Shown here in pieces: positions 29,275 to 57,605 of a DNA stretch of 64,000 bases. This stretch comes from Escherichia phage CJ20. Below the pieces are notes generated by a model. That model worked only from the letters and a program-made list of their open reading frames with translations. It ran no database searches and was not told the origin of the DNA. The stretch lies in the sequence record MT533174.1, one strand, 5' to 3'. The position numbers and the translations under genes were made by a program. The first letter of the stretch is position 1; each line of letters opens with the position of its first letter.

Positions 29275-29729
29275 TGACATTAAATGAAGTCTCTGAAGGA
29301 CTTTATGTTGCAGCCAAATTTTCAGAATTAACTCTTGATGCGCTGGAAAATCTCCAGCGCTCTCTTAAGGTACCTAATCCCGTTCCTCGTGAAAAATTCC
29401 ATTCCACTATTTGTTATTCCAGAGTAAATATTCCATATGTTGTTGCCTCTGGTAGTTTCGAAGTAGCCAACTCTGGTCACCTGGAAGTATGGAAAACTGA
29501 TGATGGGAGTACCCTGGTTCTTGTACTGAATTCAGATTATCTTAGTTGCAGACATATGTATGCACGAGCCATTGGCGCAACACATGATTTCCCGGACTAC
29601 ACTCCTCACATAACATTGTCTTATAATGTTGGTCCTTTGACGTATAAAGGAGAAGTTCAGATTCCGGTTGTTTTAGACCGTGAATATAAAGAACCGCTAA
29701 AATTAAATTGGTCGGCGGATTTAAAGTAG
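29274..29729 (+). CDS. 57B: gp57B-like 2H-phosphoesterase, i.e. Acb1 anti-CBASS cyclic-oligonucleotide nuclease
   Basis: 151-aa ORF at the T4 57B position with two H-x-[TS] motifs (FHSTICYS and TPHITLSY) typical of 2H phosphoesterases; T4 57B is the founding Acb1. Confidence 0.8.
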
Positions 29730-29758
29730 TGTACAAATGAGTGTAGGTGCAGTATTAT
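29729..29758 (+). promoter_or_regulatory. T4-type early promoter with downstream stem-loop (PeSL-like cassette)
   Basis: -35 GTGTAC (29729-29734), 18-nt spacer, -10 TATTAT (29753-29758); inverted repeat GTAGG...CCTAC spans the -10 region. Confidence 0.55.
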
Positions 29759-29789
29759 GCTCCTACACCAACGAACAAACGGAGTTAAA

Positions 29790-30122
29790 ATGAACATAAA
29801 GACTTACAACGAGTTTTTAGCCGAATCCGCCATCAATGAGACCAAATCAATTGATGATAGTGAAGGCTCTCTGAAATTTGGTTTAACCAAAAATGCAGAT
29901 GGTGTTTTCTTTCAGATTGGTAATGAACGTTTTCAAACGTCCAAATATTCCAAAGCTGCAGTTGAAGCTGTCCTGAAATCTGGTGGCAAGTGGAAAGGCA
30001 AAGAAGGTACTAAAGAAATTGGCATCGCTGTTGACGGTGGTATGGCTTATTTTAAAATTGGCGATGAACAATTTATTATGTCTGCTCGCGGACGTAAAGA
30101 ACTGGCAAAACTTTATAAATAA
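29790..30122 (+). CDS. internal protein (ip)-like, with variant capsid-targeting N-terminus MNIKTYNEFLAE
   Basis: 110 codons from the ATG at 29790 with GGAG RBS; N-terminus is a variant of the T4 IP capsid-targeting sequence MKTYQEFIAE; lies at the T4 ipI position after 57B. Confidence 0.7.
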   Translation: MNIKTYNEFLAESAINETKSIDDSEGSLKFGLTKNADGVFFQIGNERFQTSKYSKAAVEAVLKSGGKWKGKEGTKEIGIAVDGGMAYFKIGDEQFIMSARGRKELAKLYK

Positions 30123-30130
30123 GGTTTCTT

Positions 30131-30403
30131 ATGAAAACTTTCAATGAATTTTTCAACGAGTCCCAACTGAATGAAGAAGTAAAAATTAGTAAAGCAGTCA
30201 AAGCTATGATTGACAATATCAATCACCTGTACAGCATTGACTTGACTGACCATATAACAATTGGTAACAAACGCAACTTTTTCGCGTTTGACATCTCTGA
30301 ACTTGACCAGAACCAAATTAATAACATTGAGCGTTTTGCCAATGACAAGGGTCTCCGCCATGAGACAGCTGGTTATAAAAAATATGCAATTTATCTAAAA
30401 TAG
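30131..30403 (+). CDS. internal protein (ip)-like, N-terminus MKTFNEFFNE
   Basis: 90-aa ORF with a variant CTS N-terminus; second gene of a tandem ip cluster. Confidence 0.7.
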   Translation: MKTFNEFFNESQLNEEVKISKAVKAMIDNINHLYSIDLTDHITIGNKRNFFAFDISELDQNQINNIERFANDKGLRHETAGYKKYAIYLK

Positions 30404-30411
30404 GATTTCAA

Positions 30412-30711
30412 ATGCAAACTTTTCATGAATTTTTGGTAGAAAACAATTACCTGGCGGAAGCAAAAACCTGGCCTCTGGGTCTTCAGAAGAAAAACACCTA
30501 TAAATGGGTTGACTTCAAAGGTAAAGGCGACGCTGAAGACTTTGACCAGCTGCGTAAAAATGGTTATACCTTCCTTGACTCTAACTATAACAAAATTACC
30601 TCTTTTAGTCAGAAGTCAAGCATTGCCTTCATTGAAACTGGTAAGAACTCTCCTAAAGATATTTCTGACGACTTCGCCGCTTATGGTGTAATTCGTGGTT
30701 CAAAAATGTAA
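30412..30711 (+). CDS. internal protein (ip)-like, N-terminus MQTFHEFLVE; paralog of the gene at 44475
   Basis: 99-aa ORF; variant CTS; shares GDAEDF...NGY(T/S)F...IAF(I/V)...G with the ip-like gene at 44475-44738. Confidence 0.7.
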   Translation: MQTFHEFLVENNYLAEAKTWPLGLQKKNTYKWVDFKGKGDAEDFDQLRKNGYTFLDSNYNKITSFSQKSSIAFIETGKNSPKDISDDFAAYGVIRGSKM

Positions 30712-30740
30712 TGTACATGATGGGATAGTTGCAGTATAAT
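30711..30740 (+). promoter_or_regulatory. T4-type early promoter with stem-loop (PeSL-like cassette)
   Basis: -35 ATGTAC (30711-30716), 18-nt spacer, -10 TATAAT (30735-30740) centred in the inverted repeat GGGATAgttgcagTATAATTATCCC. Confidence 0.6.
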
Positions 30741-30766
30741 TATCCCATCAACTACTGGAGCTACTA

Positions 30767-55520: not shown

Positions 55521-55546
55521 ACGCTTTATACCAAGGATGGTATAAT
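55517..55546 (+). promoter_or_regulatory. probable early promoter (weaker -35)
   Basis: -10 TATAAT at 55541-55546 preceded by CCAAGGATGG (the same spacer motif as the promoter at 57549); the -35 region ATAAAC matches poorly. Confidence 0.35.
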
Positions 55547-55583
55547 GGTTCTGACCTTTGATTAATCTATTGAGGAAATTATT

Positions 55584-56429
55584 ATGTCGCAAGCAATTAA
55601 TGAAATTCGTTCTGAAGTTAAAAAAGTTGTTAAATTTAACAGCATTCCAAGCACTAAAGATGTGGTTTTAAAGGTTCTATATATGATGTGGGATAAGTTC
55701 AATGTTTGTACTAATTCTGCTGAATTCACTAAAATCTTTGAAAAGACCAAAGGCCTTCTTACATTAGAAGACCGAGTCATGAAATCTCTTCATCGTTCAG
55801 GTATGTTGTCTCGTGCTAATGCTAAAATTCTACTTAAAAATTATAACAAAGGCTATGACCTTTATGGTCGTGCGATTAGCACCATGACGTTTGATGAAGT
55901 GGTTAAAGACCTTTGGAAGAACCAACGACGTTTACTGGCTCTTGGTGCTCGTTTGGCAAGCGGTCAAGATAAACAAATGACCTTTAAAACCAATAATTCT
56001 TTAGATTATAAACTATTTAATGTTATTAAAGGTCAAAATGAAGGCGAATACAGTATTTCTTCTTTTAGTGGATGTCAATACGAAAACTGGAAATTCCACC
56101 TCCGTTTGGCTTTGTCTGAACTCGAACATCATGGGGTTCTTACCTTTTATGATGTTAAAACTGGAGGCGTCCAGCGTATTAAACTATGTCAAATTAAAGA
56201 CCGAGTTGAAGTCAGTCCTTCAGAACAAGCTCCTAAAATGGAACAGGTTCCAGTGCGAAGCAATGAAAAATATTCAGAGCAAATTGAGCTTTTCACTAAA
56301 CAGATTGAAGAACTTAACATCACCATCCAGCAGCAAGATGATGAAATTTTCCGCCTGACAGGATTGAACAGTGCAGCGAAAGCTGAACGTCAGAAACTGA
56401 TGAACGTTATTGAATTGCTTAAGGATTAA
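55584..56429 (+). CDS. hypothetical protein, 281 aa, C-terminal coiled coil
   Basis: ATG after GAGGAAATTATT (MSQAINEIRSEVKKVVKFNSIPSTKD...). Confidence 0.65.
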   Translation: MSQAINEIRSEVKKVVKFNSIPSTKDVVLKVLYMMWDKFNVCTNSAEFTKIFEKTKGLLTLEDRVMKSLHRSGMLSRANAKILLKNYNKGYDLYGRAISTMTFDEVVKDLWKNQRRLLALGARLASGQDKQMTFKTNNSLDYKLFNVIKGQNEGEYSISSFSGCQYENWKFHLRLALSELEHHGVLTFYDVKTGGVQRIKLCQIKDRVEVSPSEQAPKMEQVPVRSNEKYSEQIELFTKQIEELNITIQQQDDEIFRLTGLNSAAKAERQKLMNVIELLKD

Positions 56430-56430
56430 T

Positions 56431-56646
56431 ATGACCATTTTTATTATCAGTATTATTTTTGGTTATCTTTTGACGGGATTTATTACTACCCTATTGCTCC
56501 ACAAGTTTGATAGTCCCTACGAAAGTGGGGACGAGTATGATGCAGTGTTCACTACATTTGCATGGCCTTTGTTTTGGATAATCGCTGTTATAATGTTTGT
56601 GACCTGGCCTTTTGCTAAACTCTATGAAAAATTATTTGGATTATGA
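56431..56646 (+). CDS. small membrane protein, 71 aa, two predicted TM helices
   Basis: ATG at 56431 after AAGGATTAAT (MTIFIISIIFGYLLTGFITTLLL...FAWPLFWIIAVIMFVTWPF); the ORF-track start at 56410 lies inside the previous gene. Confidence 0.55.
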   Translation: MTIFIISIIFGYLLTGFITTLLLHKFDSPYESGDEYDAVFTTFAWPLFWIIAVIMFVTWPFAKLYEKLFGL

Positions 56647-56647
56647 T

Positions 56648-57547
56648 ATGAAAATTAAAACTCGTGCTGAATATGCTAGTAGTTATGAACCACATGACGG
56701 TCGTGTGACTCGTCTTATCGCAATGAATTCTTTGGTTAACTTTGGCAAAATTAAATCAGGTTCTGCCACCCAGGGGTATGGACAACGTATTGTAAAGATT
56801 GATTCTTTGAATGATTACTGCCGCCGCCCGGCGTTTTTGTTTGGTGCCACGGTTCGTAAGAGTATCAAGGAAATTCTGGCCGGTGGATTTCGTATTCGCA
56901 AAGCTCCGGTTAACATCAAGAACTATAATTTTAACTCTGACAACTTGATTATCAATATCAAGAATGATGGTATACAGATTAAGTTCAAACCAACCACCAA
57001 GGGCGATGTTGCTCTTTGCCATAACTTTAAAGAGGTTATGGGTATTGCACTGTTTTATATGCGTCATGCTGTTGAATCTTACACGTTTGATGAAGATACA
57101 AATTATATCCACCAAACGGAAAAATTCCTCAAAACTATAGTCATTGATATTAAATTAACTAAAGAATATCTTTTGTCTTATGCTCCTTATCAAGAGAAAA
57201 ATGAACCAGAAGAGGAAAAGGAACCAGAAATGGAACGTATCCCTACCGCATCATATGGCCCAGCATTTGCAGGTCAATTTAAATCTTATGACCAGACTAA
57301 AATTTCACCACATGACGTTAAAAATATGTACAAATGGAACGTCCAGCCAAACAGCTCTCTTGAAATCTTTAACCCACCAATGAAGCCTATTGAGAGCTAT
57401 CATGCTGATGCTATCCGGGAATCAGTTAACCGCTTAAATGGTCTGATTGAAGATGAGAAAAAGGGTATCCAGGATGTTCTGAATCGCATCAAGAATATGG
57501 AAAAACAACGCAATAAATTGCAAGCTGCAATCAAAGCATTAAAATAA
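56648..57547 (+). CDS. hypothetical protein, 299 aa, C-terminal coiled coil
   Basis: ATG at 56648 (MKIKTRAEYASSYEPHDGRVTRLIAMNSLVNFG...). Confidence 0.65.
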   Translation: MKIKTRAEYASSYEPHDGRVTRLIAMNSLVNFGKIKSGSATQGYGQRIVKIDSLNDYCRRPAFLFGATVRKSIKEILAGGFRIRKAPVNIKNYNFNSDNLIINIKNDGIQIKFKPTTKGDVALCHNFKEVMGIALFYMRHAVESYTFDEDTNYIHQTEKFLKTIVIDIKLTKEYLLSYAPYQEKNEPEEEKEPEMERIPTASYGPAFAGQFKSYDQTKISPHDVKNMYKWNVQPNSSLEIFNPPMKPIESYHADAIRESVNRLNGLIEDEKKGIQDVLNRIKNMEKQRNKLQAAIKALK

Positions 57548-57548
57548 T

Positions 57549-57578
57549 GTTTACTTCCAAGGATGGAGGGAGTATAAT
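57549..57578 (+). promoter_or_regulatory. T4-type early promoter (PeSL-like cassette)
   Basis: -35 GTTTAC (57549-57554), 18-nt spacer, -10 TATAAT (57573-57578); RBS GAGGAGAACAC before the ATG at 57606. Confidence 0.6.
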
Positions 57579-57605
57579 GAATTCCTACTTTATGAGGAGA
57601 ACACT

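Follow-up and report, generated by a model that had tools for sequence, protein, structure and literature searches.

The stretch analysed here, 64,000 nucleotides of the genome of Escherichia phage CJ20 (sequence record MT533174.1) and referred to as the window, carries 19 early-promoter cassettes that resemble the promoter-early stem-loop (PeSL) elements of T4-type phages. The first 26 kb are occupied by baseplate genes on the opposite strand. From about 28.3 kb onwards the gene order on the + strand, assigned by synteny with annotated SP18, is gp1, 57A, 57B, internal protein (IP) and tRNA genes, e.x genes, nudE, e and denV, followed beyond denV by more IP genes, vs, regB, tk, mobD and nrdC and then by 49 and nrdD; synteny with T4 spans 57B to nrdD. 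In a megablast search the closest relatives of positions 29728-45000 are the SP18-like coliphages TH41, MN01, EAWsc9, PSD2001 and SP18, with approximately 94% identity and patchy coverage. Judged by its sequence, the phage is a T4-like coliphage of the genus Gaprivervirus (SP18-like), and the + strand stretch from about 28.3 kb is the classic hyperplastic early region of T4-type phages.

All accepted cassettes are located on the + strand between 57B and gene 49. Eighteen fall within positions 29728-57580, for which a sequence-only reading of the same DNA had proposed about 17 copies and which begin at the first -35 element and stop at the -10 element of cassette 18; one more follows at 60222 (Table 1). 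A loose regular expression ((G/T/A)T(G/T/A)TAC, 16-18 nt, TATAAT-like) gives 23 matches on the + strand versus 3 on the - strand. With a position weight matrix derived from the clear copies and a score of at least 14, 20 matches (the 19 cassettes and one weak intragenic match) are obtained on the + strand and one on the - strand, compared with about 0.6 per strand expected from shuffles; the scan of the window revealed no cassette of comparable score on the - strand. Because the matrix was trained on the same copies, it is the strand asymmetry of the regular expression that provides independent evidence. A generic TTGACA/TATAAT scan is unusable for calling the cassette promoters, as it rises barely above shuffles (70 versus 54; 65 versus 58).

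The hexamer and spacer tallies agree with the -35 motif, the 17-18-nt spacer and the TATAAT-like -10 proposed earlier. GTGTAC occurs nine times, GTTTAC five times, GTATAC twice and other -35 hexamers three times; at the -10 position TATAAT is found seven times, CATAAT four times and other hexamers eight times. The spacer measures 18 nt in 17 copies and 17 nt in two, the spacing being 17 if the -35 element is read as TGTACA/TTTACA. Every cassette is intergenic and fills about 55-85 nt between the stop codon upstream and the next start codon. This stop codon lies 0-5 nt from the -35 element in 11 of the 19, overlaps the promoter in two and is 13-61 nt off in the remainder. The 20 nt upstream of the cassettes contain 72% A+T (42% A) versus 61% (32% A) regionally, and a GGAG/GAGG motif is present 5-10 nt ahead of the ATG in nearly all copies. 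As claimed, denV and regB are among the genes preceded by copies (43625 and 46886, respectively). In T4, promoter-like sites occupy orthologous positions upstream of ipI, trna.4, denV, regB and 49.1/pin; the site orthologous to cassette 19 is at T4 position 47452. The promoters would be read by the unmodified host sigma-70 RNA polymerase and would provide each small gene with its own early transcript, presumably starting about 7 nt downstream of the -10 element, for example at the A of CCCATCAAC or CCATACTG.

PeSLs have been defined as a succession of stop codon, AT-rich region, -35/-10, stem-loop, Shine-Dalgarno (SD) sequence and start codon (Arbiol 2010, PMC2839356) and have been extended to PST/T4 and nt-1/KVP40 (Comeau 2014, PMC4122927). 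The cassettes of CJ20 would follow the same order, with an A/T-rich UP-like stretch that overlaps with the upstream gene's end, a T4-type early promoter, one stem-loop and a leader with a GGAG-type SD. Intergenic location in the hyperplastic region, AT-rich stretch, sigma-70/T4-early promoter, stem-loop and SD with start codon are all present, and the match to PeSLs put forward by the sequence-only reading is thus borne out. Since every defining feature at the sequence level is found, we consider it very likely, for the explanation as a whole, that the 19 cassettes are PeSL-type elements of a T-even flavour in a Gaprivervirus coliphage.

The stem-loop is most often built from an inverted repeat around the -10 element, with the 5' arm in the spacer and the 3' arm starting directly after the -10; 9-11 of the 19 cassettes have this usual form. 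The search for arms covered 18 nt on the 5' side and 14 nt on the 3' side of the -10, and perfect complementary base pairs around it were counted. At least five perfect pairs occur in 11 of 19 cassettes (3.1 expected from shuffles) and at least six in eight of 19 (0.8 expected), in keeping with the earlier remark that the -10 often sits in the loop or arm of an inverted repeat. Spacers pair better with their own downstream arm than with the arms of other cassettes (permutation p<=0.0002). Folded as RNA, nine cassettes reach -12 to -18 kcal/mol with z scores of -3.2 to -5.5, and 0/200 dinucleotide shuffles were as good. The palindrome GGGATAgttgcagTATAATTATCCC quoted as an example is present at 30722-30746 and has a copy with three mismatches at 31056. 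Over all 19 cassettes, nine strong and two weaker stem-loops lie around the -10, one around the -35 (35336) and one to two in the leader (43625, 39279); three cassettes have an upstream terminator, about three are devoid of any stem-loop and none has two.

The same pattern emerges from a comparison set of nine genomes, which comprises the window and eight fetched segments (five Gapriverviruses, T4, RB69 and JS98). At least six base pairs are present in 42% of the 120 unique promoters versus 4% in shuffles, and cognate arms beat non-cognate ones in every genome of the nine (p<=0.007). The favoured geometry places the 5' arm 4 nt ahead of the -10 and the 3' arm immediately behind it, such that the loop consists of the TGn region and the -10 hexamer. 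Many unrelated arm sequences share this one geometry, with arms of 5-13 bp and variable loop size; they are diverse yet complementary (GTGTAGG, GATGGGATA, GGGAAC, GAGAGC, AGTTGACAAGATT, CCTAGAATTGTGA and others). In a 16-member set with common geometry, double changes were found at 10/10 pairs; as the members were chosen for having a stem, it is only the diversity of the pairs that is informative here and not the percentage paired. Single cases illustrate the point. The EAWsc9 ortholog of cassette 1 exhibits a compensatory G-C to A-T change in the stem, the T4 ipI promoter has TGATGAGGTA/TACCTCATCA in place of the TGATGGGATA/TATCCCATCA arms of cassette 2, which amounts to two compensatory double changes, and the promoters related to cassette 8 in T4, RB69 and JS98 carry the arms GGGACC, GAGAGC, GAGAGA and GAGGAC. 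The inverted repeat around the -10 is selected and not due to chance, and its arms co-vary across four genera.

A second shared feature is the leader. Six nearly identical 45-nt leaders had been described; six copies do exist (33920, 34439, 34807, 35336, 54342 and 54930), but only two fit the quoted 44-mer with at most three mismatches in ungapped alignment, the others having indels in the A-rich middle. In the alignment an invariant block, ATAATnnTnCCATACTGAGTTA, is followed by an A-rich part that varies in length and then by GGAGAATAAAATG, the invariant portion extending from the ATAAT of the -10 through CCATACTGAGTTA and including GGAGAATAAAATG. The shared leader is found ahead of unrelated genes that lie 20 kb from each other. 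Its motif occurs 10-11 times in each of three IMG/VR genomes of about 170 kb (2706795408, 2706795394 and 2706795401), at six or more separate places, and contig 2706795408 has the same 518/369/529 spacing as the window. The motif is found in only five IMG/VR contigs and the leader family is therefore specific to a narrow phage group.

These findings bear on the most sceptical explanation, namely that the cassettes are merely ordinary T4-type early promoters and that inverted repeats and leaders are chance or by-products of local gene duplication. In fact, cassettes 30711 and 31045 are 89% identical duplicates, genes g33920 and g34807 are paralogs, and extended consensus regions are known for T4 early promoters (PMC2988021). 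Chance is excluded by the shuffle and non-cognate controls, however, and neither arms that co-vary between genera nor a leader that stands in 10-11 copies genome-wide, also ahead of unrelated genes, speak for this explanation, to which we attach the least credence of all.

A textbook intrinsic terminator is located just upstream of only three cassettes in the window (33920, 51008 and 54342), all of which belong to those without a -10 stem. In the nine genomes a -10 stem is present in 0/14 promoters with an upstream terminator, which represent roughly eight independent loci, versus 52/106 without (Fisher p=0.00025). Within the leader family, 13 of the 30 unique copies have a terminator only, 13 a -10 stem only, four neither and none both (p=2e-5); in other words, stems occur in 0/13 copies with an upstream terminator versus 13/17 without. 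Two of the four copies with neither carry a GGGGG..CCCCC hairpin over the -35. From the mutual exclusivity of -10 hairpin and terminator we argue that the embedded hairpin takes the place of the terminator's hairpin. The internal mismatches in long stems comprise six G·T, one A·C and two others, compared with 15/16/69% under the null. That G·T mismatches predominate on the sense strand suggests that the stems act at the RNA level, in read-through transcripts, and does not fit a cruciform. Both observations are in line with the idea, already voiced in the sequence-only reading, that the stem-loop is a regulatory or processing site in the transcript.

As the presumed start site is downstream of the 5' arm, the full hairpin would be formed only in read-through RNA from upstream promoters. 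There it may attenuate read-through, cause pausing or protect the 3' end of the upstream cistron, the job done in other cassettes by the terminator. Like intrinsic terminators, the -10 hairpins would be stable RNA hairpins directly after a stop codon, but they differ in the absence of a U-tract and in their long loops (8-13 nt in strict stems); lacking the U-tract, they are not canonical intrinsic terminators, and that candidate explanation was rejected. We tentatively propose, as a possibility that falls short of being probable, that the TGn/-10 hairpins are a distinct U-tract-less device interchangeable with an intrinsic terminator, which in read-through RNA ends, pauses or 3'-protects the upstream message and in some genes (denV, regB) also silences translation. 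The position of the hairpin may have been forced by compaction. With the stop codon at the -35 and with -35, TGn, -10 and SD fixed, the arms can be accommodated only by the spacer and the discriminator/start region, and the loop consequently comprises TGn and the -10. The fixed elements reflect the architecture of T4 early promoters (PMC2988021).

The hairpin could instead act on the DNA, as a cruciform or single-stranded fold that pre-melts or modulates the promoter or as a target of endonuclease VII or a recombinase, the stem-loop itself being the recombination site. The loop corresponds exactly to TGn plus -10 in the favoured geometry, gene 49 (endonuclease VII) resides within the same region, and one RB49 mini-circle crossover was mapped to the loop, together with speculation about a stem-binding protein (Arbiol 2010, PMC2839356). 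On the other hand, a sense-strand G·T bias is not what such a structure predicts, because these mismatches would read A·C on the complementary strand. Stems and RNA terminators exclude each other, crossovers fall outside the stem at all five junctions inspected (see below), and a cruciform would lock the template-strand start site in a hairpin. We regard action on the DNA as very unlikely. Even less probable is that the repeat serves as a palindromic operator to which a dimeric protein of phage or host binds, such as an early-promoter shut-off factor. Many arms do resemble GGGA(T/A)A ... T(A/T)TCCC, symmetric about the -10, and how early promoters are shut off is incompletely understood (PMC2988021). 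Operator sites are difficult to reconcile with arms that are very diverse while complementary, with arm and loop lengths that vary, with tolerated G·T pairs and with the lack of the repeat in cassettes with upstream terminators. Arm diversity, G·T bias and terminator exclusivity thus disfavour both the operator and the cruciform, and a role of the hairpin in read-through RNA remains our preferred interpretation.

A related question is whether the hairpins discriminate between transcripts of different origin. In the T4 genes e, soc and I-TevI the promoter lies within a hairpin, so that only read-through RNA is untranslatable. In the known cases of this type the internal promoter is a late promoter and the 3' arm always covers the ribosome-binding site (RBS). 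The promoters of denV and regB are likewise situated inside an inverted repeat, both arms of which would be present in read-through RNA only, as transcripts from the cassettes' own promoter would be without the 5' arm; most of the other cassettes here differ in that the RBS is not covered. We predicted the accessibility of SD and AUG in read-through RNA, using as control RNA with the part upstream of the start site shuffled. The SD accessibility is 0.27 versus 0.56 in the control for denV (p~0.01) and 0.29 versus 0.58 for regB (p~0.02). In the predicted read-through RNA, GTTCTCCTA pairs with TAGGAGAAC for denV, while for regB ATGATTATC, which covers -10 and discriminator, pairs with GATAATCAT at the AUG. 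Analogous spacer-to-SD complementarity is found at the T4 denV and regB promoters with different sequences.

All hairpins could be viewed as discriminators of transcript origin in the style of e, soc and I-TevI, with read-through RNA being poorly translated and own-promoter RNA being translated. The geometry would fit, given that the start site is downstream of the 5' arm, the predicted sequestration at denV and regB goes well beyond the shuffled controls, and in the IP cassettes the stem ends only 4-8 nt ahead of the SD. In the shared-leader family, on the contrary, the stem ends 21-26 nt ahead of the SD, and over the 19 cassettes the mean SD accessibility equals that of the shuffled control (0.55 versus 0.57), with significance in 2/19 only. 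SD sequestration as a general mechanism was therefore rejected and a general discriminator function is unlikely; sequestration in read-through RNA plausibly applies to denV and regB.

The comparison of related phages also documents how cassettes and genes have been exchanged. BLAST alignments against the five relatives were chained and the junction sequences inspected, which yielded at least six clean events with junctions inside cassettes. Gene 34509-34805 is missing together with cassette 5 from SP18, TH41 and EAWsc9, the flanking leaders overlapping by 49 nt. The crossover lies within CCATACTGAGTTA..AAATAAA in two of these phages and in the SD/ATG in the third, and the different crossover points indicate independent events. 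An additional IP gene is flanked by two copies of cassette 31045 in TH41, where the crossover falls in ATCAACTACTG. SP18 and PSD2001 contain an extra gene between the -35 and the SD of cassette 40779. At the junction 54297..54342, between terminator and cassette 16, about 444 nt are additionally present in SP18 and MN01 and 1012 nt in EAWsc9. In SP18 the promoter-hairpin module of window position 54930 also precedes the ortholog of gene 54411, and three different promoter modules stand ahead of denV in the window, SP18 and T4. The same gene thus follows different promoter-hairpin modules in different phages, which supports the earlier suggestion that the leaders were spread by recombination or gene conversion. 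Crossovers are located in the shared leader, in the SD/ATG or at the -35/AT-rich edge and were outside the stem in all five junctions inspected. The conserved leader and promoter edges would offer 20-50 nt of homology with which the phage recombination system would delete, insert or swap gene or promoter modules.

Further repeats and insertions were noted in the same comparison. The junction 54297-54342 is a hot spot of insertion. The 1012 nt of EAWsc9 contain a 747-nt gene encoded on the opposite strand, and in T4 the homing endonuclease gene mobD is found in the equivalent neighbourhood. Six gene starts (30131, 30767, 43320, 44147, 44475 and 44795) carry the IP capsid-targeting signal ATGAAAACTTATCAAGAATTTAT.., MKTYQEFI. 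The relatives differ by whole IP genes, and the IP arrays recombine in the 30-nt repeat encoding the N-terminal MKTYQEFI; since the overlaps at these differences cover 29-38 nt of the repeat, the coding repeat is a recombination substrate in its own right. Promoter-less repeated RBS segments of 37-41 nt (CTCCTCT..AAGG.GATAAAATGACT) flank small genes at 38205-38246 and 38450-38486. At the former an extra gene of about 166 nt is present in 4/5 relatives (all but PSD2001), a module insertion independent of cassettes.

Several points weigh against our interpretation of the cassettes. Their use as promoters is deduced from sequence and from orthology with T4, and the effect of the -10 hairpin on read-through RNA is a predicted one. 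About four cassettes (39279, 46886, 57549 and 60222) have no convincing stem in the usual place. Many of the 120 promoters of the nine genomes are orthologs, so that the p-values for this set overstate independence, and the G·T excess comes from only about four to six independent cases. The 8 nt after the stem contain 0-3 T at the -10 hairpins versus 5-7 at the three true terminators. As to recombination, breakpoints occur at 10/18 cassette junctions versus 24/61 others, a difference that is not significant (odds ratio 1.9, p=0.28), and about half of the indels are found at cassette-less junctions, for example at the 41-nt RBS repeat 38205-38246. Cassettes as preferred indel breakpoints are consequently without statistical support, though single events are clean. 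The sequence-only reading had taken PeSLs as putative recombination points for the shuffling of gene modules; at least six events have junctions in cassettes, but there is neither a significant enrichment of breakpoints nor, at the five junctions inspected, a crossover in a stem. Because cassette junctions are not significantly more often breakpoints, the term preferred recombination point is not established, and the data fit ordinary homology-driven recombination at any short repeat.

Table 1. Early-promoter cassettes and canonical intrinsic terminators in the window. Arms are given as 5' arm / 3' arm; energies and z scores refer to RNA folds.
Feature	Positions	Strand	-35 start	ATG	Characteristics
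Cassette 1	29729..29792	+	29729	29790	-35 GTGTAC; -10 TATTAT 29753-58; first gene after 57B downstream; stem GTGTAGGTGC (29741-50) / GCTCCTACAC (29759-68), -16.5 kcal/mol, z -4.95
Cassette 2	30711..30769	+	30711	30767	-35 ATGTAC overlapping upstream stop codon; internal-protein-like gene (MKTYQEFI); 10-bp stem TGATGGGATA / TATCCCATCA around TATAAT, -17.7 kcal/mol, z -5.46
Cassette 3	31045..31105	+	31045	31103	89% copy of cassette 2; one G·T in stem, z -4.53; trna.4-like membrane protein
Intrinsic terminator	33861..33877	+			AGCCCGCATTGCGGGCT + TTTTT, 43 nt upstream of cassette 4
Cassette 4	33920..34003	+	33920	34001	shared leader; upstream terminator; no -10 stem (z +0.33)
Cassette 5	34439..34511	+	34439	34509	shared leader; stem GTGGGATA / TATCCCAT, z -4.29
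Cassette 6	34807..34881	+	34807	34879	shared leader; weak stem TGGAAT(T) / (G)ATTCCA, -5.4 kcal/mol, z -1.93
Cassette 7	35331..35409	+	35336	35407	shared leader; hairpin GGGGG-GTATACAAG-CCCCC around -35, not -10
Cassette 8	35717..35791	+	35717		upstream of e.6; stem GGGAAC / GTTCCC, loop ATGA + TAGTAT, z -3.16
Cassette 9	39279..39359	+	39279	39357	no -10 stem (z 0.02); possible 5' leader hairpin CTGATGA..TTATCAG
Cassette 10	40779..40838	+	40779	40836	stem GTGGGGCT / GGTCCCAC, 8 bp with two G·U, -16.7 kcal/mol, z -4.08
Cassette 11	43625..43684	+	43625	43682	upstream of denV; hairpin GTTCTCCTA-CAAACA-TAGGAGAAC from -6, predicted SD sequestration
Cassette 12	44087..44149	+	44087		upstream of Ip10-like internal protein gene; weak stem GGTTG / CAACC, z -2.39
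Cassette 13	44741..44797	+	44741		upstream of internal protein gene; 9-bp stem TGATGGGAT / ATCCCATCA, z -5.52
Cassette 14	46886..46945	+	46886		upstream of regB; no spacer stem; -10/discriminator ATGATTATC pairs with GATAATCAT at start codon
Intrinsic terminator	50969..50996	+			12-bp stem + T-run, directly upstream of cassette 15
Cassette 15	51008..51068	+	51008		upstream of mobD.5; upstream terminator; no -10 stem (z -0.18)
Intrinsic terminator	54303..54322	+			AAGGACCCTTCGGGGTCCTT + TTTTATTTT, upstream of cassette 16
Cassette 16	54342..54413	+	54342		shared leader; upstream terminator; bulged weak stem only (z -1.48)
Cassette 17	54930..54998	+	54930		shared leader; upstream of nrdC.8; 12-bp stem with G·U, TAGTATGGGGAT / GTTCCCATACTG, -16.2 kcal/mol, z -4.86
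Cassette 18	57549..57608	+	57549		upstream of nrdC.4; no significant stem (z -0.34)
Cassette 19	60222..60288	+	60222		beyond 57580; inside 49.1-like ORF (open reading frame), upstream of pin-like gene; 5-bp GGTTC / GAACC only, z -0.41

Some additional features of the region lie between or beside the cassettes. The 57B ortholog (29274-29729), directly upstream of the first cassette, carries the annotation anti-CBASS protein Acb1 in phage EAWsc9. Two tRNA genes, Met(CAT) and Arg(TCT), are located at 32546-32698; their flanks (31666-33217) are highly variable among relatives and lack a promoter cassette. A scan of the whole window with Rfam 15 at the gathering score gave no family match besides these two tRNAs. 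A G+C-rich hairpin on the + strand, AGGGGGCTTTGCCCCCT (36388-36404), follows directly after e.6 with no cassette attached and shows that stem-loops also occur alone at gene ends. At 60741-60765 a terminator-like hairpin (ACCCTTATC..GGTAAGGGT followed by TTATTATG) stands immediately upstream of gene 49 and marks the end of the cassette-rich region.

The closest parallels are the PeSLs of RB49 and phi1 (PMC2839356), which are likewise intergenic cassettes of hyperplastic regions with the same parts in the same order, contain G-T stem pairs, flank ORFan indels that distinguish close relatives and have a stem-loop in one of five positions relative to the promoter, most often between -35 and -10 or over the -10. 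They differ in a near-perfect TTGACA, compared with the T4-early type GTGTAC/GTTTAC of CJ20, and in polyG/polyC stems, compared with stems of mixed sequence that are often GGGAT/ATCCC-like; a further difference is that crossovers in our material map to the leader or the -35 edge. Stem-loops over the -10 form one of the two commonest PeSL subclasses, for which G-T pairs were noted as well (PMC2839356); we therefore rejected the notion that this geometry departs from published PeSLs. Termination by one stem-loop and strong expression from one PeSL were observed in lacZ reporters (PMC2839356). PeSLs are further characterised by mini-circles that arise when neighbouring cassettes recombine (Arbiol 2010; Comeau 2014).

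As far as their summary in PMC2839356 goes, the elements of T-even IP loci (Repoila 1994) are called PeSL analogues with T4 early promoters and weaker stems. These elements and the PeSLs of PST/T4 and nt-1/KVP40 (PMC4122927) share with the CJ20 cassettes a promoter consensus of the type TTTACW N17 TAYWAT, weaker, AT-richer stems and the tie to internal-protein gene arrays and gene swaps. In PST the stem-loops are situated just upstream of the promoter according to a figure legend in PMC4122927, whereas many lie around the -10 here and, in our own scan, in T4. T4 early promoters (Hinton 2010, PMC2988021) have the same UP/-35/TGn/-10 architecture with extra conserved regions and leaders of the ATCAACTACTGAGGAG type; their -35 is GTTTAC, compared with mostly GTGTAC here, and an inverted repeat around the -10 is not discussed in PMC2988021. 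In a literature search we found no description of PeSLs in SP18-like phages, a genus outside the analyses of PMC2839356 and PMC4122927. CJ20 is thus a clear example of a known phenomenon, with a known element class recognised in a genus where we have not found it described. What is added are refinements and not surprises: the strict exclusivity of terminator and hairpin, the covariation over four genera, the excess of G·T mismatches, the location of the crossovers and the absence of breakpoint enrichment.

PeSL-type cassettes have been proposed as "plug-and-play" units with which T4-like phages gain, lose and swap accessory genes while neighbours remain undisturbed, and among the genes swapped are those for internal proteins and for other candidates for a role in host range or anti-defence. 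Our analysis adds constraints to this concept: the stem-loops occur singly in the cassettes, the mismatches speak for RNA and not DNA, and crossovers occur at leader and promoter edges and not in the stem. A word of caution is that recombination was not demonstrably more frequent at the cassettes studied here than at other gene junctions. If the proposed interchangeability of hairpin and terminator is true, each gene cassette would be transcriptionally autonomous wherever it lands, and roughly 40% of the early promoters in the four sampled T-even-type genera (T4, RB69, JS98 and SP18-like) would contain a hidden RNA-level insulator. The cassette coordinates provide a map of probable early transcription units for annotating a genus that is common among coliphage and Shigella phage isolates.

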